This document shows, piece after piece, positions 24,059-49,879 of a DNA stretch of 64,000 bases. Positions within the stretch are counted from its first letter, which is position 1, and each line of letters starts with the position of its first letter. Source of the DNA: Candidatus Latescibacterota bacterium. GTDB taxonomy: Bacteria > Latescibacterota > UBA2968 > UBA8231. Position numbers and translations under genes: made by a program. The notes beneath the pieces were generated by a model. The model had not been told where the DNA came from, did no database searches, and saw only the letters and a list, made by a program, of their open reading frames with translations. The stretch covers positions 416,001-480,000 of the forward strand of contig OZ220089.1 of assembly GCA_964291625.2 (NCBI GenBank). Direction: 5' to 3'.

Positions 24059-24916
24059 ATGCAGAGAGTTCTTTCAGAATCCGACCGCCGCTTCTGGGAC
24101 GAGAACGGCTACGTCGTCGTGCCCGACGCCGTCCCCCGGGAGAACCTGGACCGCCTGGTGGAGGCCATCTGGGAGTTCCTCGAGATCGACCCGGACGACC
24201 CCGAGGACTGGTACCGCCACGACCCGTACACCCGCGAGCGCCGGACCTCGCCGATCAGCAGCGGCGGCATGGTGGAGATCTACCAGCACCAGGCGATCTG
24301 GGACAACCGGCAGTACCCGAGGGTGCACCAGGCCTTCGCCGAGATCTGGGGCGACGAGAAGCTGTGGGTCTCCCTCGACCGGGCCAACATGAAGCCGCCG
24401 GCGCGGGAGGACAGGCCGGAGTGGAACAACAAGGGGATGATCCACTGGGACCTGGACACCTCCAAGCAACCGATCCGCTTCGGCGTGCAGGGGGTCCTCT
24501 ACCTCACGGACACCGCCGAGGACCAGGGCGGCTTCCAGTGCGTGCCCGGCTTCCACCGCATGTTCGATGAGTGGGTGAAGACGCAGCCGGAGGACCGCAA
24601 CCCCTCGCGGCCGGACCTGGAGGGCCTGACGGTGAAGGCGATCCCCGGCAAGGCGGGGGACCTGCTGATCTGGCACCGGCTGCTGGCCCACGGCAACGGG
24701 CACAACCGCTCCGACCGCCCGCGCCTGGCCCAGTACATCACCATGTCCCCGGCCGGCAATCCCGAGGCGGCGGGGCCCCGGATCCAGGCCTGGCGGGAGC
24801 GCCGCCCGACGCCGGGATGGCCGGGGGACCCGCGCGACCGGGAGCACCGGCTCCAGGAGCCGGCCCGGCTCACGCCTCTGGGCCGCAGGCTCCTCGGCCT
24901 CGATCCCTGGGAGTAG
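24059..24916 (+). CDS. Phytanoyl-CoA dioxygenase (PhyH) family protein
   Basis: FWDENGYVVV, HWD, GDLLIWHRLLAHG, R. Confidence 0.88.
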   Translation: MQRVLSESDRRFWDENGYVVVPDAVPRENLDRLVEAIWEFLEIDPDDPEDWYRHDPYTRERRTSPISSGGMVEIYQHQAIWDNRQYPRVHQAFAEIWGDEKLWVSLDRANMKPPAREDRPEWNNKGMIHWDLDTSKQPIRFGVQGVLYLTDTAEDQGGFQCVPGFHRMFDEWVKTQPEDRNPSRPDLEGLTVKAIPGKAGDLLIWHRLLAHGNGHNRSDRPRLAQYITMSPAGNPEAAGPRIQAWRERRPTPGWPGDPRDREHRLQEPARLTPLGRRLLGLDPWE

Positions 24917-26582: not shown

Positions 26583-27551
26583 TCAGTCTCCGGCCGGCCC
26601 CCGAGAGGCGAGGGGCGTCCAGCCGCGGCCGGGCATGTGGGCGCGGGTCTCGAAGAACTTCTCGCGGATGGCGCAGAACTCCTCGGCCGTGCGGCACTCG
26701 CTCTCCGGCGCCCGGGGGTCGCGGATGACGAAGTCGGCCTCGGGAGGATAGCAGGCCATGGTCACGGGGTCCCTCTCGGGCGTGCAGGCGGCGGGCTCTT
26801 CCCCCACGTTGTTCGGCGCCTCGGCGCTCTGGTAGCGCAGGTCGAGGCTCCAGCGCACCCGGTCGCTGTGGTTCTCGAAGGAGGCATGGGGGGTGAGGTT
26901 GGTGAGGAAGAGGACGTCGCCGCGCTCCATCGGCACGGGGATCGGCTCGGCGCCGGGCACCCGGCCGGGGATCTCGAGATAGCCGCCGTGACCGCCCGTG
27001 TAGTGGCGGTGGACGCCGTTGCGGTGGCCGTGGGGCACCACCCACAGACAGCCGTTCTCCACGTCGACGTCGATCAGGGGGATCCAGCAGGTGAGGACCA
27101 GCAGGTCGTCGCAGTGGGGCAGGAAGTAGCCGGAGTCCTGGTGCCAGGGGACCTCGCCGCGCTCCCAGCGGGGCAGCTTCGGCCGCACGCGGTAGACGGA
27201 GGAGCCGATGATCCGCTCGCCGACGAAGCTCTCGACGACGGCGAGCAGCCTGGGGTGGGTGATGGTGTGGAACAGCTCCGGGCCGGCGAACCGGCCGCTG
27301 GTGACGGGCGCCATGATCCGCCCCAGGTGATCCGGCCAGCGCTCCGCCAGCAGGGCCAGTCGCCGGTCGAAGGGCGCGTCGGGAAAGGTCTCGTCCACCA
27401 GGCCTTCCTGCCGGGCGCGCTCGGCCTCGCGGTCGACGGCGGCGTGGAGCCCGCGGCGGACCGGCTCCAGGTCGGCGTCGTCGAGGACGCCCGGCTTCAT
27501 GACCCAGCCCTCTTCCTGGAACTGCCGTCGTTCGGCGGCGGTGAGACTCAT
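26583..27551 (-). CDS. Phytanoyl-CoA dioxygenase (PhyH) family protein
   Basis: WHQD, ENGCL, GDVLFL..TPHAS..N, RWSLDLRY; AGGAGG RBS. Confidence 0.88.
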   Translation of the reverse strand: MSLTAAERRQFQEEGWVMKPGVLDDADLEPVRRGLHAAVDREAERARQEGLVDETFPDAPFDRRLALLAERWPDHLGRIMAPVTSGRFAGPELFHTITHPRLLAVVESFVGERIIGSSVYRVRPKLPRWERGEVPWHQDSGYFLPHCDDLLVLTCWIPLIDVDVENGCLWVVPHGHRNGVHRHYTGGHGGYLEIPGRVPGAEPIPVPMERGDVLFLTNLTPHASFENHSDRVRWSLDLRYQSAEAPNNVGEEPAACTPERDPVTMACYPPEADFVIRDPRAPESECRTAEEFCAIREKFFETRAHMPGRGWTPLASRGPAGD

Positions 27552-30708: not shown

Positions 30709-31506
30709 TCAGGAGGTGGAGGGGCTGCGCTCGGGGGTGGGGTTGAGGAAGGCGGGCCTCAGGGTGCGCAGCTTGTCGCGCAGGCGTGCCGCCTCCTCGA
30801 AGTTCTCGGCTTCCACGGCCACGTGGAGGTCGCGCTCCAGCTGCTCCTTCTGCGACAGGGGGCGCTCCTTCTCCAGCTCCTCGTACCAGTCGGACAGGAA
30901 GGTCAGCTCGGGGCAGTCCTCGTCCATCACGTCCTCCTCCCCCTCCCACTCGCCGAGGAACTGCTCGATGCGGTCGATGCCGCGCTGCACGTGGCGCAGG
31001 GCGGCGTCGTAGTCCTTGGCCTCGAGGGCGGCCATGGCCCGGGCCCGGGCCTGCATCATCACCGCGTGGGGCAGGTACTGCTCGAAGTACCACTTGACCT
31101 CGTCGCTGTCGGCGTGCTCGTGGACGAGATCGAAGATGGCCAGGTTGTGACCGGTGTCGCGCTCCACGCCTTCGAAGTCCTCCAGGTAGAACAGGGCGAG
31201 ATAGCGCTGGTAGTACTGCCAGGCTTCCTGGAAGAGGTCCTCGCAGCTCTGCTCGTCGAGCTCGGGACCGCTCCTGGGCAGGGAGCCGGGGCGGCTCCTC
31301 AGGGACTGGCGGAAGTGATGGAGGAAGGACTCGGCGCCGTGGGGCCGGTGTCCGTCGGGGCGGCCGGAGACGTCGAGCTGGAGGACCCCCATGTCGATGC
31401 GGATCTGGATCTTCTCCGTGCCGTCCCGGGCGGTGATCCGGCGGGCGATGAACTCGTCCGGGTCGAAGGGCCACGAATTGAGCAGGTCACCGATGTCGTA
31501 TTTCAT
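30709..31506 (-). CDS. UVR (UvrB/UvrC motif) domain protein
   Basis: C-terminal LHVAVEAENFEEAARLRD; conserved-looking N-terminal KIQIRIDMGVLQL..GRPDG; AAGGGGG RBS. Confidence 0.75.
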   Translation of the reverse strand: MKYDIGDLLNSWPFDPDEFIARRITARDGTEKIQIRIDMGVLQLDVSGRPDGHRPHGAESFLHHFRQSLRSRPGSLPRSGPELDEQSCEDLFQEAWQYYQRYLALFYLEDFEGVERDTGHNLAIFDLVHEHADSDEVKWYFEQYLPHAVMMQARARAMAALEAKDYDAALRHVQRGIDRIEQFLGEWEGEEDVMDEDCPELTFLSDWYEELEKERPLSQKEQLERDLHVAVEAENFEEAARLRDKLRTLRPAFLNPTPERSPSTS

Positions 31507-31583: not shown

Positions 31584-33116
31584 CTACCGCCGGGAGACCT
31601 TGATGCTGCCTACGGCGACGCCGATGACGAGGGCGATGACGGCGGCGATGATCAGGGCGTTGCGGACCACCCGGGCCCGCTCCTCCACGCGGATGGTGAT
31701 GTCCTTCTCCTGGGCCTCGATGCGCTCCGGGCCCTCGTACCCGGCGGCCTCGACGCGCACGTCGTACTCGCTGACGCCGATGCCGGCGGGCTGCACGAGG
31801 GTGATGTTCACCGGCTCCTTCTCCCCCGGCAGGATGCGGTCGATCGTGTCGGGCTCGGAGGACCAGGTCCAGTCGAGGGGCGGGGTCAGCACCAGGTGCA
31901 CCCTCTCCACCTCCAGGGTCCCCGTGTTGAGCAGGTCGACGCGCACCTTCACCTCCTCGCCCGTGCGCACCTCCTGGTAGCGGTTGGCGATGAGGGTTTC
32001 GAGGGCGCCCCGGCCCCGGGGGATGAGCTCGAAGCGCTCCTTGTTCCCGGGGATCGTGTTGATCTCCTCCAGGGGAATGGGGCCGCGGTGCTTGCGGTTC
32101 AGCTCTCCGATGCGCTCGAAGCCGGCGGCCTCGGTGACGAAGACGTAGAACTCGATCGTCTGGTCGACGTAACCGCGGCTGAGCTTCTCGGGGATCTGCA
32201 GCTCCAGCTCCAGCTGCTGGCGCGTGACCTCCTCGCTGAACTTCACCTGCGTCAGGTTGGCGTTGGTCCCCGGGTCGACGAAGGCGGGGGTGATCTCCCG
32301 CGGCAGGTTGACCAGGGCCAGGCGGAAGGTCTTCTCGTCCTCGGCGAGACGCTCGAGGATGAGGTCGAAGTTGACCCGCGTGTTGAGGTCGCCCTCCTGG
32401 GAGAACTGGACCGAGTTGATCGTCGGCAGGTCCTGGCTCGACTCCCGGCGCATGACGATGTGCAGGAGCTCCTTGCTGCCGTCGAGGTAGGTGAGGTCGA
32501 CGACCACGTCCTCGTAGTCTTGGAGCAGCCGGAAGGTGAGCCGCGTGCCCTCGCCCAGGGGCAGGGAGGGCACGAGGATCTCGTAGGGCTCGGCGACGAT
32601 CGTTCCCAGGCGCTCGGTGAGGGAGACCTTGAGGTTCTGGATCTCCAGCAGGGGCCGGATCTCGCTCTCCTCGCGGTCGGGGTTGAGCGACAGGGCCTGG
32701 TCGAGCTGGGAGGCGTTCTCGAGGACGATGTCGACCTGGCGGCGGCCGTCGAGGGTGCGGTACTTGCGGGCCTCGCGGATGGTGACGCGGGTGGCGTCCT
32801 TGAGGAACTCGAGGCGCGTGCGGTCGAGCTGGAAGACCGCCTCGCTGTACTTCAGCTCCGAGTGCAGGAAGGCGCGCCGGGCTTTGTTCAGGCTCTCGAG
32901 GGTCTCGATCTTCTCGTCGTAGAGCTCCTGGATGATGTCGTACTCGCTCTTGTTGTTGTCCATCTCCAGCTTGCGGCTCTCCACCTCCCACTGCGCCTTG
33001 CGCAGCTTGATGTCGTAGAGGCGCTGCTCCTTGGTGCGCAGGTCCTTGGTCGCCGCCAGGGGCGAGGCCAGGAGGCCGAGGAGGAAGGCGCCCAGACAGG
33101 CGCGGGCGGCGGTCAT
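31584..33116 (-). CDS. Exported coiled-coil + NEW3/Ig-like protein with C-terminal TM anchor (paralog B)
   Basis: Signal peptide, N-terminal heptads, LNTGT..PPLDW..I..GE NEW3-like pattern, terminal TM + SRR. Confidence 0.75.
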   Translation of the reverse strand: MTAARACLGAFLLGLLASPLAATKDLRTKEQRLYDIKLRKAQWEVESRKLEMDNNKSEYDIIQELYDEKIETLESLNKARRAFLHSELKYSEAVFQLDRTRLEFLKDATRVTIREARKYRTLDGRRQVDIVLENASQLDQALSLNPDREESEIRPLLEIQNLKVSLTERLGTIVAEPYEILVPSLPLGEGTRLTFRLLQDYEDVVVDLTYLDGSKELLHIVMRRESSQDLPTINSVQFSQEGDLNTRVNFDLILERLAEDEKTFRLALVNLPREITPAFVDPGTNANLTQVKFSEEVTRQQLELELQIPEKLSRGYVDQTIEFYVFVTEAAGFERIGELNRKHRGPIPLEEINTIPGNKERFELIPRGRGALETLIANRYQEVRTGEEVKVRVDLLNTGTLEVERVHLVLTPPLDWTWSSEPDTIDRILPGEKEPVNITLVQPAGIGVSEYDVRVEAAGYEGPERIEAQEKDITIRVEERARVVRNALIIAAVIALVIGVAVGSIKVSRR

Positions 33117-34633
33117 CGGCGGCTGATCCGGACGCTGGCCACGCCGATGCCGACGACGAGGAGCACGAGGATGCCGATGAGGATGACGTTTCCGGCGATG
33201 TTCGATCGCGCCCCCACGTGGATGGTCAGGTTCTTCTCCAGGGACTCCACGTTCTCGTTGCCCACCTGGCCCTGGGCCTCGACGCCGAGCTCGTAGTTGC
33301 CCACGGCGATGTCGGGGGGCGGCCGGGCGACGATGTCGAGGGGCGCGCGCTCTTCGGGCTCCAGGCGCTTGATGAGGGTGGGCGTCACCTCCTCCTGCCA
33401 CTGGTAGGGCAGGTCGAGGGCGGCCTTGATGTTCTGCACCGCCACGCTGCCGCGGTTGAGGAACTCGACGCGGATGTTCAGCTCGTCGCCGGTCTGGATC
33501 TCCCGGTAGGTGTTGGAGACGAGGACCTCGAGCTTGCCGATGCCCTTGGGGATGAGCTCGAGCTCGACGTAGTTGGCCCGCAGGGCGCTCACCTCCTCCT
33601 CCGGCACCGGGTCGTCGCCGTAGCGCGCCCGGATGGCGTTGATGCGGGCGTACTCGCGCGGCTCGGTGACCAGGGCGAAGAAGGGGCGCGCCAGGCCCAC
33701 CAGGTCGCGGTCGAGCTTCTCGGGGATCTCGAGGACGAGGCCGAGGGTGTCCTTGGACTTGGTCTCGTCGAACTTCACCTGGTTGACCTTGGCGCCGGCG
33801 TTGCGGAAGGAGTGGTCGATCTTGCGCGGCAGGCCGAGGACGGCGAGGGCGAAGCTGCGCTCCTCGTCGGAGAGGCGCTCGAGGATGAGGTCGAAGCGCA
33901 CGTCCTGCTGCAGCTCGCCCGACTGCGAGAACTGGGCGGAGTTGATGCTCGGCAGATTCTCGCGCCCGCCCTTGCGCAGGGTGACGGGGATGCTCTCCAG
34001 GGCGTCAAGGTAGCCGAGGACCACGGCCACCGCCTCCTCGTCGCGCAGGAGGCGGAAGGTCAGGGTGCGCCGCTCGCCCACGTCGAGGGCGGGGACGCGG
34101 GTCTCGTAGGGCTCGCCCACGAGGGGCCCGTTCTCCAGGGAGACGAAGATGTTCTCCACGCGCAGCAGGATGCGCAGATCCTCCTCGGTGAGGGAGGGAT
34201 CGACGACGAGGGCGTCGCCCGTGTCGGAGGCGTTCTCGACGACGATGTCGACCATGCTCTTGCCGTCGGGGCTCTTGTACTTGCGGGCGTCGCGCACGAC
34301 GATATGGGTGGCGTTGCGCAGCAGGTCGAGCTTGGTCTCCTCCAGCAGGATCTCGGCCTCCTCCTTCTGCAGCCGCGCCTCGGCGTAGCTGTTCTGCGCC
34401 TGCTTGTAGGTGAGGAGGGGCACGAAGCCCGAGTCGTGGAGGGCCCGCGTGAGCCGCAGTTCCTCCAGGGCCTGCTCGAGGCTGGTGCGGCGCTGGTCCA
34501 GCTGCAGCTGGCGCTCGTCGAGCTGCAGCTTGTCGAGCTGCTGCTGGCGCGTGAGGCCGGCGCCCCCGGGAGCCGCGGCGGCCTGCGCGGCGAGGAGCAG
34601 GAACCCGGCCAGCAGCGGGAACTTCGCCCTCAT
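33113..34633 (-). CDS. Exported coiled-coil + NEW3/Ig-like protein with C-terminal TM anchor (paralog A)
   Basis: Same architecture; clear paralogy to 31584-33116; ATGA overlaps with both neighbours. Confidence 0.75.
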   Translation of the reverse strand: MRAKFPLLAGFLLLAAQAAAAPGGAGLTRQQQLDKLQLDERQLQLDQRRTSLEQALEELRLTRALHDSGFVPLLTYKQAQNSYAEARLQKEEAEILLEETKLDLLRNATHIVVRDARKYKSPDGKSMVDIVVENASDTGDALVVDPSLTEEDLRILLRVENIFVSLENGPLVGEPYETRVPALDVGERRTLTFRLLRDEEAVAVVLGYLDALESIPVTLRKGGRENLPSINSAQFSQSGELQQDVRFDLILERLSDEERSFALAVLGLPRKIDHSFRNAGAKVNQVKFDETKSKDTLGLVLEIPEKLDRDLVGLARPFFALVTEPREYARINAIRARYGDDPVPEEEVSALRANYVELELIPKGIGKLEVLVSNTYREIQTGDELNIRVEFLNRGSVAVQNIKAALDLPYQWQEEVTPTLIKRLEPEERAPLDIVARPPPDIAVGNYELGVEAQGQVGNENVESLEKNLTIHVGARSNIAGNVILIGILVLLVVGIGVASVRISRR

Positions 34634-36027
34634 TCGACGTACCCCATCAGCCGCCGCAACGCGGCCTGGCGCGAGATGTAGGTCTCCTGGTTCCGGAACA
34701 GCTCTTCCTGGGCGGAGAAGAACTGCTGCCGGAAGTTCTCCAGCACCGCCTCGTCCACCTGCCCTCCCTTCTCCTGGACCTGCTGCTTGATCTCCAGCCG
34801 CCGGCGGGCGATGACCACGCTCTTCTCCTGCAGCCGCTGGGTCTCCTCGGCCTCGAGCATCGACTGGTAGGCCTGGCGCACGCCCAGCTCCACCGAGGCC
34901 CTGAGGTCGCGCAGCTGCACCTGCAGGCCCTGCAGCCGGGCGCGCTCGAGGCCCTCGCGGCCCAGGCGGGCGCCGCCCTCGAAGATGGGGATGCGCGCCT
35001 GCACGCGGGCCGACCAGGCCGCTTCGCCCGCGTCCTCGGGCGTGTCCGCCTCGTCGAGGGTGAGGCCGGTCTCCACACCGACGCCCCAGGTGCCGCCCTC
35101 GCGGCCGACGGTGAGGCCCGCCCGGCGGCGGCCGTCGCCGACGCCGGCGTCGGCGCTCAGGTCGGGGGCGTACTCCCAGCCGATCTCGCGCAGGACCCGC
35201 CGCTGCTCGTCGAGGAGCTGCTCGGTGACGCCGATCTCCACGTCGTGAACGAGGGCCCGGCCCACGGCCTCGTCCTGGTCGACGGCGAAGGGCTCCAGCT
35301 CGCCGCCGAGCCGCAGGTCGAGGCCGATGGGGCGGCCGATGAGGCGCAGGAGCTCCATCTTGTCGCGCAGCTGCTCGCGCCGGATGCGGTTGATGCTGAG
35401 CTCCTCCTCCAGGACGTTGAGCTCGGCCTGGAGCTTCTGCTCCTCGGAGGCGAGGCGCTTCTCGAAGCGGGCCTGCTGACGCGCGAAGGTGGCCTCGAAG
35501 TTCTGCCGCGAGGCGACGCGCAGGGCGATCTGCTGGTCCTTGAGCAGAATCAGGTGATAGAGCTCCCAGACGCGGGCGCTGACCTCGTAGACCTTGTCCT
35601 GGTAGTCGAAGACGGCCTTGCGCAGATCGGCGCGCAGCTGGATCTCGGAAGCGGCGTCGGGGCCGAACTCGAAGAGGCGCTGCTCGAGCAGCAGCTCGCT
35701 GGCCAGCTGGTCGCGGGTGGTGGCGTCGCCCTCGGCGCGCAGGGCGTCGTACCCGGCGGTGAGGCTCACCCGCGGCATCAGGCGGGAGCGGACGACGACG
35801 GCGTCGCTCTCGACCTCCTCGACGCGCTTGCGCGCGCGGATCAGCTCGCGGTTGTGGGAGAAGGCCGCCGCGAGGCAGTCGGCCAGGCCGAGGGGCGCCG
35901 CCCCGGCGGTGGAGTCGGGCCGCGCCGGAGGCCCCTCGGCGACGGCGGGACCGAGGGCCGCGGCCACTCCCGCGATGAGAACCGCCGTCCGCAGGTGGAG
36001 GGCCCGGAACGGCGAAAAGGTCAGCAA
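34630..36027 (-). CDS. TolC family outer membrane factor (start uncertain; TTG 36027 or 36033)
   Basis: LADCLAAAFSHN, two repeats of beta-hairpin plus coiled-coil (P..SL, IPIFEGG, VRQAY); the promoter at 36065-36093 argues against the 36216 start. Confidence 0.8.
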   Translation of the reverse strand: MLTFSPFRALHLRTAVLIAGVAAALGPAVAEGPPARPDSTAGAAPLGLADCLAAAFSHNRELIRARKRVEEVESDAVVVRSRLMPRVSLTAGYDALRAEGDATTRDQLASELLLEQRLFEFGPDAASEIQLRADLRKAVFDYQDKVYEVSARVWELYHLILLKDQQIALRVASRQNFEATFARQQARFEKRLASEEQKLQAELNVLEEELSINRIRREQLRDKMELLRLIGRPIGLDLRLGGELEPFAVDQDEAVGRALVHDVEIGVTEQLLDEQRRVLREIGWEYAPDLSADAGVGDGRRRAGLTVGREGGTWGVGVETGLTLDEADTPEDAGEAAWSARVQARIPIFEGGARLGREGLERARLQGLQVQLRDLRASVELGVRQAYQSMLEAEETQRLQEKSVVIARRRLEIKQQVQEKGGQVDEAVLENFRQQFFSAQEELFRNQETYISRQAALRRLMGYVE

Positions 36028-36064
36028 AATCAATAGGTTCCGTAGGGTCTGGCAGATCGCGCTA

Positions 36065-36127
36065 ATCCTACTCGTGAAGGTGGACCATGTCAAGATGGGG
36101 TTGCGTGCAAGCCATTGCTTGACATGG
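36065..36127. promoter_or_regulatory. Divergent promoter region with long inverted repeat
   Basis: CCATGTCAAG (36085-36094) / CTTGACATGG (36118-36127) give back-to-back TTGACA boxes; minus strand TTGACA-17-TAGGAT. Confidence 0.6.
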
Positions 36128-36190
36128 GTCACGTACCCCCCGCACGTTACCCCTGCGAATCGCGGGCCGACTTTTCCCGGAGAGAGGCGA

Positions 36191-36913
36191 ATGCTCGAGA
36201 TCATCGGGATGACCAAGCACTACGGCGACGTCCACGCCGTGAACGACCTCACCCTGACCATCGAGCCGGGCGAGATCTTCACCATGCTCGGAGCCAACGG
36301 CGCCGGCAAGACGACCACCCTCATGGTGGCCCTCGGGTTCACCGAGCCGACGGACGGGACGGTGAAGATCTGCGGCGTCGACGTCACGCGCGACCCGCTC
36401 GAGGCCAAGCGCCACGTGGCCTACGTGTCGGAGAACGTCATGCTCTACGGCAACTTCACGGCCCGCCAGAACCTCGAGTTCTTCACCAAGCTCGGCGGCC
36501 GCAAGGAGGTGGAGGCCTCGGAGTACGACCAGGTCATGGACCGCGTCGGCCTGCAGCGCGACGCCTTCGACCGGCGCGTCAAGGGGTTCTCCAAGGGCAT
36601 GCGCCAGAAGCTCGGCATCGCCATCGCCATCATGAAGAACGCCGAGGTGATCCTCCTCGACGAGCCGACCTCGGGACTGGACCCCAAATCGGGCGCCGAG
36701 TTCCTGCAGCTGCTGGCCGAGCTGCGCGAGGAGAACAAGGCGATCTGGATGACGACCCACGACATCTTCCGGGCCAAGCAGATCGCCGACCGCGTGGGCA
36801 TCATGGTCGAGGGCAACCTGGTGAAGATCTTCACCCGCGACGAGCTCGGGCAGGAGGACCTGGAATCGATCTACGTGGAGTTCGTGAGCCAGCCCGCAGA
36901 GCAGGCGGCCTGA
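36191..36913 (+). CDS. ABC transporter ATP-binding protein
   Basis: GANGAGKTT, FSKGM, ILLDEPTSGLD, TTH; GGAGAGAGG RBS. Confidence 0.92.
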   Translation: MLEIIGMTKHYGDVHAVNDLTLTIEPGEIFTMLGANGAGKTTTLMVALGFTEPTDGTVKICGVDVTRDPLEAKRHVAYVSENVMLYGNFTARQNLEFFTKLGGRKEVEASEYDQVMDRVGLQRDAFDRRVKGFSKGMRQKLGIAIAIMKNAEVILLDEPTSGLDPKSGAEFLQLLAELREENKAIWMTTHDIFRAKQIADRVGIMVEGNLVKIFTRDELGQEDLESIYVEFVSQPAEQAA

Positions 36914-37019
36914 CGGCCGTCGACGCCGCCGGCCGCCGGCCCCGACCCGCCTTGCGCCCCCGTTCCCGCATGTCCCCGGTCAGCGGCGCCCCCGGCGCCG
37001 CGATTCCATCGAGGCTTCC

Positions 37020-38405
37020 ATGCTCCTGCGACTGATCCGCAAGGAAGTCCTGCACAACATCCTGAGCTTCCGCTTCGCCGTCACCTACGGCCTGCTCTTC
37101 GTCCTCGTCCTGCTCGCCGTCTTCCTCATGGGCAACGAGCACCGGCAGCGCATGGAGACCTATACCCGGCAGGAGGCCCAGGCCCGGGACCGCCTGGAGG
37201 AGCTGGCCGGGGTGCAGGACGCCACCGAGCAGTTCCGGCAGATCCAGCGCGAGGACTTCGCGGGGGTTCGCCAGCCGGGGGCGCTGGCCGTCCTCGCCCG
37301 CGGTCTCGAGGGCAGCCTGCCGGCGCAGATCTCCTCCGGCGGGTGGTTCACCACGCACAGCTCCGAGGACCGCCTGGGGCGCAACATCCTCCTCGAGATC
37401 TTCCAGGCCCCCGACTTCGCCTACGTGGTCAACATGGTCCTGAGCCTGCTGGCCCTGCTCTTCGTCTTCGACTCCGTCTGCGGCGAGAAGGAGCGGGGCA
37501 CCCTCAAGCTCCTGCTGTCGGGCTCGGTCCCCCGCGACTCGGTGCTGCTGGGCAAGTGGGTGGGCGGCTACCTCTCCATCGCCGGGCCCTTCGCCGCCGC
37601 CGCCGCCGCCGGCTTCCTCTACCTCTCCCTCTCCGGCTCCCTGCCGCTCGAGGCGGAGGTCGTCTCCCGCTTCGCCGCGATCCTCGCCGTCTCCTTCCTC
37701 TATATCTCCGCCTGCTTCAGTCTCGGTCTGCTGATCTCCACCCTCGCCCACCGCGGCGCCACGGCCCTGCTCATGGCGCTGCTGGTGTGGATCGGCTGGA
37801 TCCTGGTGGTGCCCAACGTGGCGCCTGTCGTGGCCCGCCTGGCGGCGCCGGTGCCGTCGCGCCAGGTGATCGACGCCGAACAGCAGGCCATCGACCGCGA
37901 GGCGGAGCTGCTGATGGGGGCCATCCGCAAGAGCAAGGTCTACGGCGACCAGCAGCAGATGGAGCGCATCCGGGAGGAGACCGAGCAGCGCAAGCGCAAG
38001 CTGGACGGATTCTACAAGGACCGCATGTCGCGCCAGACGTCCCTGAGCCAGAACCTGGCGCGCCTGTCGCCGTCGGCCAGCTATCTCCTCGCCGCCACCC
38101 GTCTCGCCGGCACCGGCCCCGACCTCTTCGCCCACTTCTCCGACGCCGTCGAGCGCTTCCACGGCGCCCACGAAGACTTCCGCCGCCAGATGTACGGCAA
38201 CGTCTCCTGGACCGGAGGACCCGATCCGGACATCCAGGACGAGGGCTGGTTCGACCCCGGCGAGGTGCCCCGGCTGTCCATGTTCTCCGAGAGCCTCTCC
38301 GAAGCCTTCGACGGGGCCCTCTTCGACATCCTGCTGCTGTGCGTGTTCAACGTGCTGTTCTTCCTGCTGTCGTACGTCTTCTTCCTCCGATACGACGTCA
38401 CCTGA
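37020..38405 (+). CDS. ABC-2 type permease with large extracytoplasmic domains
   Basis: GEKERGTLKLLLS..R..VLLGK; about 6 TM helices; C-terminal FLRYDV. Confidence 0.85.
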   Translation: MLLRLIRKEVLHNILSFRFAVTYGLLFVLVLLAVFLMGNEHRQRMETYTRQEAQARDRLEELAGVQDATEQFRQIQREDFAGVRQPGALAVLARGLEGSLPAQISSGGWFTTHSSEDRLGRNILLEIFQAPDFAYVVNMVLSLLALLFVFDSVCGEKERGTLKLLLSGSVPRDSVLLGKWVGGYLSIAGPFAAAAAAGFLYLSLSGSLPLEAEVVSRFAAILAVSFLYISACFSLGLLISTLAHRGATALLMALLVWIGWILVVPNVAPVVARLAAPVPSRQVIDAEQQAIDREAELLMGAIRKSKVYGDQQQMERIREETEQRKRKLDGFYKDRMSRQTSLSQNLARLSPSASYLLAATRLAGTGPDLFAHFSDAVERFHGAHEDFRRQMYGNVSWTGGPDPDIQDEGWFDPGEVPRLSMFSESLSEAFDGALFDILLLCVFNVLFFLLSYVFFLRYDVT

Positions 38406-38426
38406 GCCGCCCCCGGGAGAACGCCC

Positions 38427-39860
38427 GTGCTGCTGCACATCGTCCGCAAGGAGCTCCTCGACCAGCTGCTGTCCCTGCGCTTCGCCATCGCCTGCGGCAT
38501 CTGCCTCATCGTCTTCCTGCTCAGCGCCGTGGTCCTGACGCGGGATTACCGCGAGGGCCTGTCCACGTACAACATGAACCGGGTCATGCACCGCAACGAG
38601 CTGCAGCAGCGCAGCGAGATCTGGAGCCTGAACGAGGGGGTCACCGTCGACCGGCCCCTGAACCTCATGAACACGCTGGTGCGCGGCCTGTCGAAGGAGC
38701 TGACCGAGAGCGTCCAGGTGCAGCCCGGGAACCGCCTCGACTTCCCCGAGGGCTGGGAGCAGAACCCGGTGCTGCCCCTCTTCCCGCCGGTGGACTTCGT
38801 CTTCATCGTCGGCATCATACTGAGCCTGCTGGCCCTGGCCTTCGCCTACGACGGGGTCTCGGGCGAGGCCGAGACCGGCGTCCTCAAGCTGCTCATGTCG
38901 TACAGCGCTCCTCGCGACCTGGTGCTCCTCGGCAAGTGGCTCGGCGGCTACCTGGCCCTCGTCGCGCCCTTCACCGTCTCCTTCGTACTCGCCCTCCTCG
39001 TGGTGCTGCTGTTCCCCGACGTGCAGCCCGACGCCGAGAGCTCGCTGGCCCTGCTCGCCCTCTACGGCCTCGCCCTGCTCTACCTCGGCGCCGTGTACAG
39101 CCTGGGCCTCTTCGTCTCCTGCCGCACCAGGCTGGCCTCGACCTCGATCACCGTCCTCCTGCTGCTGTGGGTGTCCCTGATCCTGGCGGTGCCGAACATG
39201 GCGCCGTACGTGGTCAGCCAGGTGGTGCCGATCCCCTCCGCCGAGGAGGTGGACCGCGAGAAGCAGGCCCTGCAGATGGAGCAGCAGCGGCGCTTCCAGG
39301 AGATCATCGCGGAGGAGCAGGAGCGGCTTGGCCGCGACAACGTGTGGGGCGACGAGTCGGTGCAGGAGCGGTTCCGGGTGGCGGCGGAGGAGTCCCAGGC
39401 GGAGATACAGAAGATCGAGGACAGTTTCCGCACCCAGGTGGCGGGGCAGACGCGGCTCTCCGGCATTCTCGCACGCATGTCTCCCCTGACCTCCTTCAAC
39501 CTCGCCGCCTTCGACCTGGCCGCCGCCGGCATCGCCCAGGAGGAGGAGTGGGTGGCGAGCCTGGAGGCCTTCGGCGACACCTGGTCGGCGTACTCGGAGG
39601 AGAAGCAGCGCGCCTACAGGGAGTGGATCCAGGAGCAGATGGCCGCTTCCCCCAGCGGCGGCGTGACCATCACGCCGCAGGACATGGAGCGGTTCAACCA
39701 GGACCTGGACCTGTCCGACGCTCCGCGGTTCGACTTTACCCACATGGGCGTTTCCGACCGCCTCGCCGCGGTCTACGTCGATCTGGCCTTGCTGGCCCTT
39801 TGGAACGTCGCCTTCTTCATGCTCGCCTACCTTTCCTTCCTGCGGTACGACATCAACTGA
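38427..39860 (+). CDS. ABC-2 type permease (paralog)
   Basis: GEAETGVLKLLMS..R..LLGK; C-terminal FLRYDI. Confidence 0.85.
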   Translation: MLLHIVRKELLDQLLSLRFAIACGICLIVFLLSAVVLTRDYREGLSTYNMNRVMHRNELQQRSEIWSLNEGVTVDRPLNLMNTLVRGLSKELTESVQVQPGNRLDFPEGWEQNPVLPLFPPVDFVFIVGIILSLLALAFAYDGVSGEAETGVLKLLMSYSAPRDLVLLGKWLGGYLALVAPFTVSFVLALLVVLLFPDVQPDAESSLALLALYGLALLYLGAVYSLGLFVSCRTRLASTSITVLLLLWVSLILAVPNMAPYVVSQVVPIPSAEEVDREKQALQMEQQRRFQEIIAEEQERLGRDNVWGDESVQERFRVAAEESQAEIQKIEDSFRTQVAGQTRLSGILARMSPLTSFNLAAFDLAAAGIAQEEEWVASLEAFGDTWSAYSEEKQRAYREWIQEQMAASPSGGVTITPQDMERFNQDLDLSDAPRFDFTHMGVSDRLAAVYVDLALLALWNVAFFMLAYLSFLRYDIN

Positions 39861-41842: not shown

Positions 41843-42853
41843 ATGTCCCCTGCCCTTCTTCTTCTCCTGATCCTGCTGCCCGGCGCGCTCACCGGCCAGG
41901 AGCGCCCGCCGACACCGGTCATCGTCGCCGAGGTCCTCGAGCAGCCGCTGGTCGAGGACCTCTCCTTCGTCGGGCGCATCCTGCCGGTGCGCTCCAGCCG
42001 CGTCGCCGCCGAGACCGAAGGCAAGGTGGTGCAGCGGTTCAGGGACGCCGGTCAGACCGTGCGCGCCGGCGACCCCCTCTTCGCGCTGGCCAACGATCCG
42101 CTCCAGGCCGCCCTGGACGAGGCCGAGGCCGATCTGGCCCTGCGCCGGTTCATCCACGACGGCAGCCGCCGCCTGCGAGCCACCGAAGCGGTCTCCGAGC
42201 AGGACCTGCGCATCGAGGCCTTCGAGCTGGCCCGGGCCGAAGCCCGCCTGAGCGGCCTGAAGGCCCAGGTGGAAGACCTCCTCGTCCGCGCCCCCTTTTC
42301 CGGGCACATCGTCCGCACCGCCACCGAGGTCGGCGAGTGGGTCGGCCGCGGCGGCGAGATCGCCCAGGTGATCTCCATCGACACGGTGCGCGCCATCGTC
42401 GAGGTGCCCGAGCACCACGTGCCGCAGCTGGCCCTGGGGGACAGCGGCGCCATCTTCGTCGATGCCCTCGGCGGCGATCCCGTCCACGGCCTCGTGACCG
42501 CCATCTCCGCCGAGGGCTACCCCTCCTCCCGCACCTTCCCGGTCGTCGTCGAGGCCGCCAATCCGGAAGGCCGGATGCGCAGCAACATGTCGGCCCGGGT
42601 GCGCTTCCGGATCGCCCAGACGAGGCCGTCGCTCCTGGTGCACAAGGACGCCCTGGTCTCCGGTCCTCGGGGACAGGTGGTCTACCTCGCCCGCGACGGG
42701 ATGGCCCACGGCCGCCCCGTCGAAGCCGGGCTGGCGCACCAGGGCTACGTGGCCGTCACGGGCGAGCTGGCACCCGGCGATCTGGCCGTGGTGCGCGGCA
42801 ACGAGCGGCTGCGCGACGGCCAGGCCGTGCGCATCATCCGCAGGCAGCCGTAG
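41843..42853 (+). CDS. RND efflux periplasmic adaptor (MFP)
   Basis: Lipoyl-like halves (G.V....G..V..GD.L; RAPFSG), hairpin, SRTF, VVRGNERLRDG. Confidence 0.9.
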   Translation: MSPALLLLLILLPGALTGQERPPTPVIVAEVLEQPLVEDLSFVGRILPVRSSRVAAETEGKVVQRFRDAGQTVRAGDPLFALANDPLQAALDEAEADLALRRFIHDGSRRLRATEAVSEQDLRIEAFELARAEARLSGLKAQVEDLLVRAPFSGHIVRTATEVGEWVGRGGEIAQVISIDTVRAIVEVPEHHVPQLALGDSGAIFVDALGGDPVHGLVTAISAEGYPSSRTFPVVVEAANPEGRMRSNMSARVRFRIAQTRPSLLVHKDALVSGPRGQVVYLARDGMAHGRPVEAGLAHQGYVAVTGELAPGDLAVVRGNERLRDGQAVRIIRRQP

Positions 42854-42859
42854 ACCGTC

Positions 42860-45800
42860 ATGCGCCTGATCGCCACAGCCATCCAGCGGCCCGTCAGCGT
42901 GACCGTCGGCGTGCTCCTGGTGGCGCTCTTCGGCCTGATCTCCCTCTTCCGGATCCCCGTTCAGCTCACGCCGGACATCGACCGGCCGATCATCACGGTC
43001 TCCACCGTGTGGCCGGGGGCCAGCCCGGAAGAGGTCGAGCAGGAGATCGTCCAGCGCCAGGAGGAACAGCTGAGGAGCGTCGAGGGACTGGTGCTGATGA
43101 CCAGCGAGAGCAACGACAGCCGCGGGGTCGTCTCCCTCGAGTTCAGCGTCGGCGTCGATCCCGACGCGGTGATGCTGCTGGTCTCCAACAAGCTCGACCA
43201 GGTCTTCGGCTATCCCCTCGACGCCGAGCGGCCGGTGATCTCGGCCGGCGGCAGCGGGCCGAGCGGGGCGATCACCTGGATCATGCTCCAACCCCTTCCG
43301 GACCGCGGCGACCTGGACATCGAACGCTACCGCGACTACGCCGAGGAAGTCGTCAAGACCGCCCTCGAGCGCGTGCCCGGCGTCTCCCGGAGCAACATCT
43401 ACGGCGGCTACGAACGGCAGCTCCAGGTCATCGTCGATCCCCGGGCCATGGCCGCCCGCCAGATCACCGTCCAGGACCTGGCCCAGGCCCTCACCCGCGA
43501 GAACGCCAATACCAGCGCCGGGACCTTCGACGAGGGCAAGCGCCGCTACATCGTGCGCACCGTCGGCCAGTACCAGCAGCCCGCGGACATCGAGAAGGTC
43601 GTCGTCCGCTCGGCCGACGGCACCCGGGTCACCGTCGGCGAGATCGCCCGCACCCGCCTCGGCTACGTCCGCACCGTGGCCTCCGTGCGGCAGAAGGGCA
43701 CCCCGGCGATCGCCATCAACGCCCAGCGCGAGACCGGGGCCAACGTCCTCGAGGTCATGGACGGCATCCGCCTCACCCTCCGCGAGCTCAACGAGGGGCC
43801 GCTGGCCCGCGAGGGCCTCTACCTGAAGCAGGTCTACGACGAGACCGACTACATCGACAGCGCCATCGGCCTGGTGCGCTCCAACATCGTCATCGGCGGC
43901 GCCCTGGCGGTGACGGTGCTCTTCATCTTCCTGCGCAGCGTCAGCTCGGTGGCGATCATCGCCACGGCGATCCCGATCTCGATCGTCGGCACCTTCCTGG
44001 CCATGGGGCTCCTGGGCCGCAACATCAACGTCATCAGCCTGGCGGGGATGAGCTTTGCCGTGGGCATGGTCATCGACAACGCCATCGTCGCCCTCGAGAA
44101 CATCTTCCGCCACCAGCAGATGGGGAAGACCCGCGTGCGCGCGGCCCTCGACGGGGCCTCGGAGGTCTGGGGGGCGCTCCTGGCCAGCACCCTGACCACG
44201 GTGGCCATCTTCCTGCCCATCGTCTTCGTCGAGGACGAGGCCGGTCAGCTCTTCCGCGACATCGCCATCGCCGTCTCCTGCTCGGTCGTGCTCAGCCTGA
44301 TCGTGGCCATCTCCGTCATCCCCAGCCTGGCCAACAAGATCCTCGGCGGCGGCGAGCGGCGCCGGAGCCGACTGGTCGCCTGGGGCGAAGGGGTGCGGAC
44401 CTTCATCGCCCGGAGCGTCTTCCGCATCAGCGGCAGCACGGTGCTGCGCATGGGGGTCATCGCCGGGCTGATCGGCCTGTCGCTGGGCATCGCAATCACC
44501 CTGCTGCCCAAGTCGGAATACCTGCCCACGGGCAACCGCAACCTGATCTTCGGCATCGTCCTGCCGCCCCCCGGCTACAACCTCGACGAGCTGATCCAGG
44601 TGGGCCAGACGATCGAGGACGTCCTGCGGCCCCACTGGGAGGCGGCCTCCGACCCCGACGGCCCCCAGGCCCAGGCGCTGTCGGGACCGCCGATCGCCAA
44701 CATGTTCTTCGTCGCCTTCGGCCGCTCGGCCTTCATGGGCGCGCGCTCGACCGACCCGGCGCGCGTGCGCGAGCTGATCCCGATCATCCAGGGGCCGGTC
44801 CTGGGCGGGGTGCCGGGGACGTTCGCCGTGGTGCAGCAGTCGAGCCTCTTCCAGCGCGCCACCGGCAGCGGGCGCTCCATCGACATCGACATCACCGGGC
44901 CCGACCTGGACCACCTCGTCGGGCTGGGGGGGCGGATCTTCGGCCAAGTCCGGCAGGTCGTGCCCGGGTCCCAGGCCCGCCCCATTCCCAGCCTCGACCT
45001 GGGCAATCCGGAAGTCCGCATCCTCCCCGACCGCGTGCGCGCCGCCGACCTGGGGCTCTCGGCGCGGGAGATCGGCTCGGCGGTCAACGCCTTGATGGAC
45101 GGGGCCCTCGTCGACGGCTACCAGTTCCAGGGGGAGGAGATCGACCTGGTGCTCCGGGGCGAGGAGGACTGGTTCCGCACCCAGGACATCGCCAACCTGC
45201 CGATCTACACCCCCCGCGGCCAGCTGGTGCCGCTCAGCGCCGTGGCGCGAGTCGAGGTGACCACCGGCCCCGAGCAGATCAACCACATCGAGCGGGACCG
45301 GGCGATCACCGTCCGGGTCATCCCGCCGGAGACGGTTCCCCTGGAGACCGCCCTCGACGCGCTCCAGACCAAGATCGTCCAGCCCCTCGTCGATTCCGGC
45401 GACCTGGTCCCGCCCTACCAGATCCGACTGTCCGGCTCGGCCGACGACCTGCGGCGCACCCGCCAGGCCCTGCAGTGGAACTTCCTCCTGGCCCTGCTCA
45501 TCACCTACCTGCTGATGGCGGCGCTCTTCGAGAGCTTCCTCTACCCCTTCGTCATCATGCTCAGCGTGCCGCCGGCCCTGGCGGGCGGCATCCTCGGGCT
45601 GGAGGTCGTCAACCGCACCCTGACCTACCAACCCCTCGACATCCTCACCATGCTCGGCTTCGTCATCCTCATCGGGGTGGTGGTCAACAACGCCATCCTC
45701 ATCGTCCACCAGACGCTGAACATCCTGCGGGAGGCGCCCGAGACCCCGCTCAGAGAGGCGATCCACGACGCCGTCTACAGCCGCGTGCGGCCGATCTTCA

Positions 45801-46000
45801 TGTCGACCATCACCAGCGCCCTGGGCATGCTGCCGCTGGTCATCTTCCCCGGCGCCGGGTCCGAGCTCTACCGGGGTCTGGGCAGCGTCGTGATCGGGGG
45901 GCTGCTGCTGTCGACGCTGTTCACCCTCTTTCTGGTGCCTACCTTCCTCAGCCTGGCGATGGACCTGAGGGCCTGGATCGGCCGGGGCGGGAGGGTGTAG
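42860..46000 (+). CDS. RND efflux permease (AcrB/AcrD/AcrF family)
   Basis: GMVIDNAIVALENI, VVNNAIL, RVRPIFMST; two large periplasmic loops. Confidence 0.95.
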   Translation: MRLIATAIQRPVSVTVGVLLVALFGLISLFRIPVQLTPDIDRPIITVSTVWPGASPEEVEQEIVQRQEEQLRSVEGLVLMTSESNDSRGVVSLEFSVGVDPDAVMLLVSNKLDQVFGYPLDAERPVISAGGSGPSGAITWIMLQPLPDRGDLDIERYRDYAEEVVKTALERVPGVSRSNIYGGYERQLQVIVDPRAMAARQITVQDLAQALTRENANTSAGTFDEGKRRYIVRTVGQYQQPADIEKVVVRSADGTRVTVGEIARTRLGYVRTVASVRQKGTPAIAINAQRETGANVLEVMDGIRLTLRELNEGPLAREGLYLKQVYDETDYIDSAIGLVRSNIVIGGALAVTVLFIFLRSVSSVAIIATAIPISIVGTFLAMGLLGRNINVISLAGMSFAVGMVIDNAIVALENIFRHQQMGKTRVRAALDGASEVWGALLASTLTTVAIFLPIVFVEDEAGQLFRDIAIAVSCSVVLSLIVAISVIPSLANKILGGGERRRSRLVAWGEGVRTFIARSVFRISGSTVLRMGVIAGLIGLSLGIAITLLPKSEYLPTGNRNLIFGIVLPPPGYNLDELIQVGQTIEDVLRPHWEAASDPDGPQAQALSGPPIANMFFVAFGRSAFMGARSTDPARVRELIPIIQGPVLGGVPGTFAVVQQSSLFQRATGSGRSIDIDITGPDLDHLVGLGGRIFGQVRQVVPGSQARPIPSLDLGNPEVRILPDRVRAADLGLSAREIGSAVNALMDGALVDGYQFQGEEIDLVLRGEEDWFRTQDIANLPIYTPRGQLVPLSAVARVEVTTGPEQINHIERDRAITVRVIPPETVPLETALDALQTKIVQPLVDSGDLVPPYQIRLSGSADDLRRTRQALQWNFLLALLITYLLMAALFESFLYPFVIMLSVPPALAGGILGLEVVNRTLTYQPLDILTMLGFVILIGVVVNNAILIVHQTLNILREAPETPLREAIHDAVYSRVRPIFMSTITSALGMLPLVIFPGAGSELYRGLGSVVIGGLLLSTLFTLFLVPTFLSLAMDLRAWIGRGGRV

Positions 46001-49057: not shown

Positions 49058-49879
49058 ATGAGCGACCATATTGCCGCGCCCGTGCCCATGACGGAAGAGC
49101 AGAAGTTCTTCTACGACCTCCAGGGTTGGATCCTGTTGCCTTCCGTCCTGTCCGAAGCGGAAGTCGAAGTGATGAAGGCCGAGGTCTACGACGGCGCCAG
49201 GCAGAGCTACCAGGGTGCCCTGCAGGAGCTCCTGGACCATCCTGCGGTGACCGGCATCCTCACCGAAATCCTTGCCGAAGAGCCGTTCCTCGGAGACGAC
49301 TATCACAGCTTCCGCTGCGAGGGCTCCTTCGTCACCGTGCGGCACGCCGGCTGGAAGAGCGACGGGGAGGGCACCGGCCTGCCGCACGTGGTGCGGCCGC
49401 CGCAACAGGCCAATGCCATGCGCTACCAGGTCGCGGGCAAGAAGATCTTCTCCGGGCTCACCCGGGTCGTGTGGGAGCTCGAAGAGGTGAAAGCCGGTCA
49501 AGGGGGCACCACGTTTCTCTCCGGCTCCCACAAGGCCCACTTCAACTACGGCGGCCCCGACCCCAACCAGCCCAATATCCGCGAGTCTCCCTGGGAGGAA
49601 GGCATGCGCGCGGCCATGGCTCAATACAGCTGCCCGCCCGGCTCGGCCATCATCTTCACCGAAAGCCTGCTGCACGCGGCCAACGACTGGCGCAACACGG
49701 ACAATCCGCGCTGCGCCGTGTTCAACTGCTACAATTCCCTGTGGGCTCAATGGCACCGACTCAACCTCGGCCACGAGATCATCGAGGCCATGCCGCCCAG
49801 GCGCCGCTCCTTGTTCCGCGGCACGTGGCAGCTGGGCGGCGAGAATCACGCCTACTCGCTGGACAATCGTTCGATCTGA
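49058..49879 (+). CDS. Phytanoyl-CoA dioxygenase (PhyH) family protein
   Basis: FYDLQGWILL, GSHK, GSAIIFTESLLH, R. Confidence 0.8.
   Translation: MSDHIAAPVPMTEEQKFFYDLQGWILLPSVLSEAEVEVMKAEVYDGARQSYQGALQELLDHPAVTGILTEILAEEPFLGDDYHSFRCEGSFVTVRHAGWKSDGEGTGLPHVVRPPQQANAMRYQVAGKKIFSGLTRVVWELEEVKAGQGGTTFLSGSHKAHFNYGGPDPNQPNIRESPWEEGMRAAMAQYSCPPGSAIIFTESLLHAANDWRNTDNPRCAVFNCYNSLWAQWHRLNLGHEIIEAMPPRRRSLFRGTWQLGGENHAYSLDNRSI

Follow-up and report, generated by a model that had tools for sequence, protein, structure and literature searches.

What could connect an ABC-2 transporter to a TolC-family channel when the gene cluster that encodes them includes no adaptor of the known kind? This question is raised by a group of six genes in a 64,000-nucleotide stretch of DNA from a Candidatus Latescibacterota bacterium (GenBank assembly GCA_964291625.2, contig OZ220089.1, positions 416,001 to 480,000 of the forward strand), hereafter termed the window, in whose coordinates all positions are given. 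The six genes lie between 31584 and 39860 and comprise a minus-strand trio, namely tolC and two genes that we term A and B, and a divergent plus-strand trio encoding an ATP-binding cassette (ABC) ATPase and two ABC-2 permeases, an arrangement that a preliminary description of the locus had reported and on which gene calls and Pfam agree. The same description proposed that A and B constitute a new class of TolC adaptor with an inverted topology. We put at roughly 60% the probability that the six genes together specify a tripartite ABC exporter that spans the envelope and uses A and B as TolC adaptors, the contacts between its parts being predicted.

Architecture of A and B

In the minus-strand trio, tolC (34630-36033, start uncertain) is followed directly by A (33113-34633, 506 amino acids) and then by B (31584-33116, 510 amino acids). 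The product of tolC was matched twice by the OEP model of Pfam (1.3e-31), identifying it as a TolC-family outer-membrane factor (OMF). Both ATGA stop/start overlaps that had been taken as translational coupling are present, at 34630-34633 (tolC/A) and 33113-33116 (A/B). A and B are indeed paralogs, as had been claimed (39% identity, E 5.6e-106; the peptides quoted in the preliminary description are present in the translations), and no third copy was found in the genome.

An AlphaFold2 model of A, built from 18 relatives (mean predicted local distance difference test (pLDDT) 84.5, predicted TM-score (pTM) 0.47), comprises a signal peptide, a hairpin of two helices (residues 29-67 and 73-108, encoded at 34310-34549), three beta-sandwiches (residues 111-218, 229-323 and 353-474) and a C-terminal transmembrane (TM) helix (residues 479-505, at 33119-33199) with a Ser-Arg-Arg (SRR) tail. 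B shares this layout, with a signal peptide, an alpha-hairpin at about residues 26-108, three immunoglobulin (Ig)-like domains, a C-terminal TM helix and an SRR end. In Pfam, the two proteins matched only NPCBM_assoc/NEW3, at about residues 380-458 (residues 384-458 in B; residues 380-454 in A, encoded at 33272-33496, where the model likewise places a membrane-proximal Ig-like domain), and NCBIfam held no family for either of them. The order of elements given in the preliminary description is thus borne out by the model and by the NEW3 match.

The signal peptides of the A/B family are short and, as judged by eye, end in AXA-like motifs, and the SRR tail is basic and nearly invariant across the family. 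Given these short signals and the C-terminal SRR, A and B should be type I inner-membrane proteins, with a predicted cleavable Sec signal, a C-terminal anchor and a free N-terminus just before the hairpin. This predicted topology is the reverse of that of classical adaptors and agrees with the inversion proposed earlier.

Periplasmic adaptor proteins (PAPs), as described in passages of a 2026 review (PMC13328181), consist of hairpin, lipoyl, beta-barrel and, in most cases, membrane-proximal domains, are anchored at their N-terminus, and form one family that serves resistance-nodulation-division (RND), ABC and major facilitator superfamily pumps. Of these defining features of the membrane fusion protein (MFP)/HlyD family, A and B possess the hairpin only. 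No match to Biotin_lipoyl, HlyD_3 or HlyD_D23 was obtained in A, B or the 18 relatives at E<=0.1, while the same Pfam library recognised a canonical MFP encoded at 41843-42853 through HlyD_D23 and HlyD_3. In the model of A, the hairpin starts at the mature N-terminus and passes straight into an Ig-like sandwich, with no lipoyl domain split around it; in place of the beta-barrel and membrane-proximal domains there are three Ig-like/NEW3 beta-sandwiches; and instead of an N-terminal anchor (be it a lipid, an uncleaved signal or a TM helix) A and B have a single C-terminal TM helix. Since the lipoyl, beta-barrel and membrane-proximal domains are absent, as is the N-terminal anchor, A and B fall outside the MFP/HlyD family and are probably functional analogues of it. 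When the whole model of A was searched with Foldseek, only generic Ig arrays were retrieved (integrin legs and ciliary proteins, TM-scores 0.2-0.3), domains 1 and 2 being searched only as part of the whole model; domain 3 matched the Ig-like domains of glycosidases (Z 11.6) in a wide structural search.

The hairpin, by contrast with the rest of the protein, has recognizable relatives among efflux components. A profile of the whole family, compared with the sequences in the PDB, aligned in register with the hairpins of the adaptors MexJ (3.1e-5), MexA (2.4e-3; query 26-99 on MexA 63-136) and a MacA chimera (3.1e-3). A profile of the hairpin only, made from 23 diverse sequences, matched MexJ (1.4e-5), a MacA/MexA chimera (4.2e-5), MexA (6.3e-5), ZneB (1.3e-3), the Bacteroides efflux adaptor 4l8j (5e-3), MacA (6e-3) and the OMF CmeC (7.6e-3), with weaker matches to TriA-TriB, a MexC-like protein, AcrA and EmrA, and the best 11 of the 23 listed matches were all adaptors or an OMF. 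In addition, 14 of the 23 hairpins matched the helical hairpin part of OEP in Pfam, below the cut-off. The DUF3526 region of permease 1, which is just as helical, served as an internal control and yielded designed proteins and myosin only, and no adaptors. On the structural side, the modelled hairpin of A superposed on AcrA 96-175 (80 residues, 1.9 Å, Z 10.8), as well as on HlyD, EmrA, MacA (84 residues, Z 10.1) and MexA.

These profile matches mark the hairpin of A and B as one of the efflux-adaptor/OMF type at the level of sequence, and, combined with the lack of any lipoyl, beta-barrel or HlyD-type domain, they indicate that A and B carry the OMF-docking type of hairpin found in adaptors on an unrelated scaffold, docking itself being a prediction. 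Canonical adaptors bear an RLS motif at the tip of the hairpin. That this motif is conserved in the A/B family was considered and dropped, since by eye a Leu, and often a Ser/Thr at +7, is kept and the Arg is not. A complex prediction with A 26-222, B 24-226 and a single TolC protomer (35-456), which is a poor stand-in for the trimer, gave scores of 0.01 and 0.00 and speaks neither for nor against binding.

The transporter genes and the conserved linkage

The ATPase (36191-36913, plus strand, 240 amino acids) matched ABC_tran in Pfam; its nearest NCBIfam model was the DrrA subfamily, at a score below the cut-off, and it reached only 156 bits with the GldA equivalog TIGR03522, for which the cut-off is 402.6. 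It is followed on the same strand by permease 1 (37020-38405, 461 amino acids) and permease 2 (38427-39860, 477 amino acids), which are 31% identical to each other and both match ABC2_membrane_2 (PF12679; 114.8 and 88.4 bits, with a cut-off of 27.2) and DUF3526, and neither of which matched FtsX or MacB_PCD in Pfam. An AlphaFold2 model of permease 1 (27-row alignment, pLDDT 85.8, pTM 0.83) has six TM helices and a periplasmic bundle that consists of an extension of TM1 and helices 281-304, 310-347 and 367-393, the latter three inserted between TM5 and TM6. Since NosY of NosDFY matches it best among solved structures (Foldseek E 1e-4, TM-score 0.77-0.83 over NosY; phmmer E 0.0037), permease 1 is modelled as a NosY-like ABC-2 permease with a DUF3526 periplasmic helical bundle of ~190 extra residues.

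Natural gene fusions tie such permeases to A. Two proteins from different sources, P0273 (924 amino acids) and P0257 (892 amino acids), consist of a complete ABC-2 permease fused to an A-like protein; residues 1-438 form the permease part, with 27% identity to permease 2 (E 5e-29), residues 500-923 form the A-like part, which matches A (E 4e-31), and the former signal peptide has become the linking TM segment. These fusions suggest that the ABC-2 permease and the A-like protein work together.

The A/B family is sizeable. Among representatives at 50% identity, the number of proteins matched by its profile was 1,560 at E<=1e-3, 628 at E<=1e-10 and 241 at E<=1e-30. Within the phylum, 168 genomes were covered, of which 79 held a family match, and among the 52 high-quality genomes the number was 19. 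The relatives retrieved in the locus search were all A-type and came from metagenome-assembled genomes labelled Latescibacterota, Gemmatimonadetes, Planctomycetota or simply 'bacterium'. We compared 61 loci, that is, the window and 60 regions of at most 20 kb from ~130 places, which were chosen for long contigs and for spread across the phylum and hence form a sample that is neither random nor independent; genes were scored by tblastn, with a Pfam hidden Markov model (HMM) recheck in ten genomes.

In 48 of the 61 loci, the A/B homolog had a TolC-family gene as its immediate neighbor on the same strand. Of these, tblastn accounted for 46, all of them same-strand and separated by -9 to 231 bp, and the HMM recheck added two adjacent OMF genes that tblastn had missed (L038 and L042). 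An ATPase at least 50% identical to that of the cluster was present in 55/61 loci and at least one DUF3526-type permease in 51/61 (at least two in 45/61, and up to six in one locus), such that the linkage of tolC and ABC-2 genes to A/B, which the preliminary description had proposed as a check, is found throughout most of the sample. Gene order varies between lineages, with no fewer than four arrangements (T-A-B, N-T-ATPase, T-N-ATPase and T-N-permeases) in which the linkage is kept. Tandem A/B pairs occurred in 24 loci, with TolC directly adjacent in 21 of them, always in the order TolC, A-type, B-type; two further tandem loci (L064 and L069) meet a contig edge where TolC would be. In the remaining tandem locus, L049 (8315-11199, genome G106), no TolC, ATPase or permease gene was found within ~8 kb on each side, and the first, A-type copy lacks its N-terminal part, matching only from residue 79 with a garbled frame upstream; this may be a decaying locus. 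Single-copy loci numbered 37, one of them frameshifted (L060), and TolC was adjacent in 25 of these by tblastn.

Several related loci differ from the window in their gene content. In L065 (11735-14176, plus strand), a TolC-A-B operon is followed not by ABC-2 genes but by an 813-amino-acid MacB-type permease (MacB_PCD and FtsX), which hints that A/B-type adaptors might serve more than one type of transporter. L038, L042 and L044 each contain six DUF3526-type permease genes, one ATPase gene and one A-like gene, which suggests interchangeable permease pairs. Other related clusters encode lipoproteins of ~460-480 amino acids, one to seven paralogs per cluster and interleaved with the permease genes, that have a lipobox (LLGAC or WLAAC), HEAT repeats and a CBM9-like C-terminal part (L057 11600-19986; L058 4-7975 and 13733-15127; L061 15648-16988; L032 3630-4991 and 7990-9315; L070 14205-15644). 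These could be cargo or NosL-like partners; no such gene was found in the window between 22001 and 50000. Finally, eight related loci (L040 11965-13335, and L050, L051, L052, L053, L056, L069 and L070) carry, a few kb or less from the A/B homologs, genes for NosD-like right-handed beta-helix proteins (PF05048, PF13229); in L040 the gene comes directly after that of the ATPase, and no permease gene was found there.

A putative exporter and the rival explanations

At the level of genes, the components of a tripartite system occur together in the cluster: a TolC-family OMF, an ABC_tran ATPase, ABC2_membrane_2 permeases and hairpin-bearing proteins. In the machine that we propose, the engine would be an ATPase dimer with a heterodimer of the two NosY-like ABC-2 permeases, each contributing its periplasmic helical bundle. 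A and B, anchored by their C-terminal helix once the Sec signal has been cleaved, would stand on their three Ig-like domains and present an efflux-type hairpin at their free N-terminal end. By analogy with MacA, AcrA and TriAB, they would alternate in a hexameric ring, probably A3B3, with the C-terminal helices beside the permease heterodimer and the Ig-like domains enclosing the permease bundles, and the six hairpins would make tip-to-tip contact with the TolC trimer at its six helix-turn-helix tips. ATP hydrolysis would then drive the permease bundles, pushing cargo through the ring and out via TolC. We infer the ring, its contacts with TolC and with the permeases, the A3B3 stoichiometry and the direction of transport alike. 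As for dimensions, helices of 36-39 residues would span ~55 Å and each Ig-like domain ~35-40 Å, and this estimated span, together with the periplasmic barrel of TolC, would be of the same order as in known pumps.

A further-reaching version of this proposal, which we regard as possible though doubtful, is that of a trans-envelope machine assembled independently of the known pumps, in which Ig-like domains form the wall of the conduit, the hairpin was captured from an OMF or adaptor gene, a NosFY-like drive expels, by way of its periplasmic helical bundle, cargo from the periplasm or the outer leaflet rather than drugs from the cytoplasm, and the stalk is tuned by the number of Ig repeats. Possible cargo of such a machine would be the lipoproteins or glycans for which genes lie next to related clusters.

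Several observations weigh against an exporter that spans the envelope. The arrangement of domains relative to one another in the model of A is uncertain (pTM 0.47), and no Pfam or NCBIfam adaptor model matched A or B at E<=0.1, with the exception of one sub-threshold HlyD match (E 0.08). Unrelated helical hairpins matched the hairpin of A at a similar Z, and, helical hairpins being a common fold, the structural match is weak when taken alone. Nine single-copy loci of one sub-family (L037, L039-L041, L048, L060 and L089-L091) lack a TolC-family gene anywhere in the 20-kb locus, even though all nine have the ATPase and all but L040 have permeases; for six of the nine genomes a genome-wide HMM search found no OMF gene within 20 kb, and for the other three the result is from tblastn only. 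Two family members, P0116 (718 amino acids) and P0119 (797 amino acids), keep the N-terminal hairpin and carry the first Ig-like domain in two or three additional copies; a rigid bridge would thereby become several nm longer, and such copies cannot easily be reconciled with a bridge of fixed length. The NosD-like and lipoprotein genes of related loci, moreover, recall NosDFYL, which works in the periplasm and has no outer-membrane channel. The proposal that A and B form a new class of adaptor to TolC therefore stands in part: the hairpin profile, the linkage and the fusions speak for it, and the single-copy sub-family that lacks a nearby TolC gene speaks against it. In this sub-family the hairpin is present and ~14 residues shorter; a short hairpin is not, however, the mark of a TolC-less system, for the short-hairpin loci L038 and L042 have an adjacent OMF gene.

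The main rival explanation gives A and B an auxiliary role, comparable to that of NosD or GldG, as periplasmic subunits of a NosFY-like ABC-2 mechanotransducer, with TolC co-regulated rather than docked. The two would then work in the periplasm or on the inner membrane, handling lipoproteins or glycans for instance, and the hairpin would serve for oligomerization or for packing on the helical bundle of the permease. This explanation would fit the permeases' closest solved relative, NosY, the recurrence of NosD-like and HEAT/CBM9-like lipoprotein genes in related loci, the 9 of 61 loci with an A-like gene and no TolC gene nearby, the presence of NEW3-type domains in glycosidases and the differences in stalk length among family members. 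It sits less well with a tolC gene that is translationally coupled to A and has stayed adjacent in 48/61 loci through several rearrangements, with a hairpin profile that specifically picks the hairpins of adaptors and OMFs, and with the absence of any NosD, NosL or NosZ gene among the six genes or the scanned flanking genes. As regards the gliding-motility ABC transporter GldAFG, of which GldG is the auxiliary protein, A and B matched no family of auxiliary components in Pfam or NCBIfam. On balance we consider the auxiliary-subunit explanation unlikely, though by no means negligible.

A second explanation, that tolC serves a neighboring RND pump and is adjacent to A and B incidentally, stems from a feature that the preliminary description missed. 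Its statement that no HlyD-type adaptor is encoded holds within 31584-39860, where no HlyD/MFP gene was found, yet the canonical HlyD-type adaptor mentioned above (41843-42853) and an AcrB-type RND pump (42860-46000), both on the plus strand, lie 2 kb downstream. Within the window this pair is without an OMF gene of its own, the distance to tolC is 6 kb, and a similar pair is found beside the cluster in L054, L055 and L071. All four loci, the window included, belong to one genus, however, whereas TolC-A/B adjacency extends to 48 of the 61; since the recurrence of the pair is limited to that genus, we regard it as a neighbor rather than as part of the cluster. Considering also that tolC overlaps A by ATGA and that the genome has 10 OMF genes, this explanation is highly improbable, although the pair might share the cluster's TolC. 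Of the 10 OMF genes, the cluster's tolC has the lowest summed Pfam-model score. About as improbable is that A and B are exported cargo or adhesin- or S-layer-like proteins of the cell surface, for which tandem Ig-like domains are typical and to which the generic Ig arrays retrieved by Foldseek would be suited, because the Sec signal and the C-terminal TM helix with its basic tail should retain them in the inner membrane, one copy per system is conserved, and in some relatives they are fused to the permease.

Setting of the locus and comparison with known systems

The G+C content is ~70% across the window, and the genes that flank the cluster in it are unrelated metabolic enzymes. The two trios are separated by a divergent intergenic region of ~157 bp (36034-36190) that holds a sigma-70-like site (TTGACA-17-TAGGAT, 36093-36065, minus strand) just upstream of the likely tolC start. 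The tolC reading frame is open up to 36216, and a plausible signal peptide follows the TTG codons at 36033 and 36027, so that one of these codons is likely the start; a start at 36000 was ruled out, as the codon there is CTC. No riboswitch or regulator hinting at the cargo was found with Rfam between 30000 and 42000 (E<=1), and a sub-threshold match to CRISPR-DR20 (E 0.45) was taken as chance. Directly downstream of B lies a gene for a small protein with a C-terminal UvrB/UvrC motif (30709-31500, minus strand), and three genes of the PhyH family (phytanoyl-CoA dioxygenase-like) are found within 25 kb (24059-24916, 26583-27551 and 49058-49879) in the company of a luciferase-like monooxygenase and a SnoaL-like protein, with no evident tie to the cluster.

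DNA nearly identical to the window was detected in sequencing runs X2-X16 from 14 studies, many of them labelled as sponge or marine metagenomes, and the source lineage therefore seems to be sponge- or marine-associated. Contigs from RNA libraries that are nearly identical to the window (X2 and X17-X19) cover parts of the cluster genes: those of X2, a run labelled as sponge metagenome, include parts of all six genes (29/30 bins, in pieces with 0-7 differences), and those of X17-X19 parts of most of the six. They offer at most a weak hint of expression, as carry-over of DNA is possible and the contigs do not show strand or transcript.

Literature searches, supplements and subscription journals aside, found no characterized system of this kind, a match to which would have spoken against the novelty claimed in the preliminary description. 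They returned nothing on DUF3526 and only unrelated work on PF10633, on NEW3 in connection with ABC transporters and on periplasmic adaptors combined with ABC-2 and TolC. Neither the 2026 PAP review nor the part of a 2021 Chem Rev review that was covered, in the passages available and supplements aside, contains the term 'Ig-like' or describes adaptors anchored by a C-terminal TM helix. If the proposed role of A and B is correct, a second adaptor scaffold exists that has kept only the hairpin, which would make the hairpin a portable TolC-docking module and the rest of the adaptor replaceable, and would provide a natural experiment on the assembly and gating of pumps. It would also tie the NosY-like ABC-2 transporters, a large and mostly uncharacterized group, to export across the outer membrane. 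The A/B family comprises 241 clusters at 50% identity (E<=1e-30), and Pfam recognizes only its NEW3 domain.

Among known proteins, the uncharacterized membrane proteins of COG1470 resemble A and B in that a NEW3 Ig-like domain precedes a C-terminal TM helix, and a distant member of the A/B family is named 'COG1470 family protein' by NCBI; the literature found under that term is unrelated. NosDFY(L), which acts in the maturation of N2O reductase, contains the closest solved relative of the permeases and likewise combines an ABC-2 engine with periplasmic partners, and NosD-like genes accompany some of the related A/B loci. It differs in that the present cluster lacks NosD, NosL and NosZ and has the extra ~190-residue permease bundle, a TolC gene and the hairpin proteins.

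The permeases YbhS and YbhR of E. coli belong to the ABC-2 family. As described in passages of one report, they form part of YbhGFSR, a set of jointly encoded proteins that, much like the present cluster, includes a single ATPase, two paralogous six-TM permeases and an adaptor, and for which TolC has been proposed as the exit (PMC7190983). YbhG is a canonical MFP, however, and tolC is unlinked there, whereas A and B fall outside the MFP family. A precedent for two paralogous adaptors is TriA and TriB of the P. aeruginosa TriABC-OpmH pump, which, according to the passages cited above, are 36% identical (compared to 39% for A and B), are both needed and assemble as 3:(3+3):3 (PMC13328181); the fused TriA-TriB chain 6vej is also the weak profile match noted above. 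Unlike the present system, TriABC-OpmH employs an RND transporter and canonical four-domain adaptors that are anchored at the N-terminus.

Of the known systems, MacAB-TolC likewise combines an ABC transporter possessing a sizeable periplasmic domain, an adaptor that bears a hairpin and is anchored in the inner membrane, and a TolC-family channel, and the hairpins of A and MacA are equally long. Here, however, the permeases are NosY-like ABC-2 proteins and not of the MacB/FtsX type, and the adaptor role would fall to two paralogs with a C-terminal anchor, in which three Ig-like domains replace the lipoyl, beta-barrel and membrane-proximal domains. Overall, the cluster is probably a new variant of the tripartite pump with a new class of adaptor.

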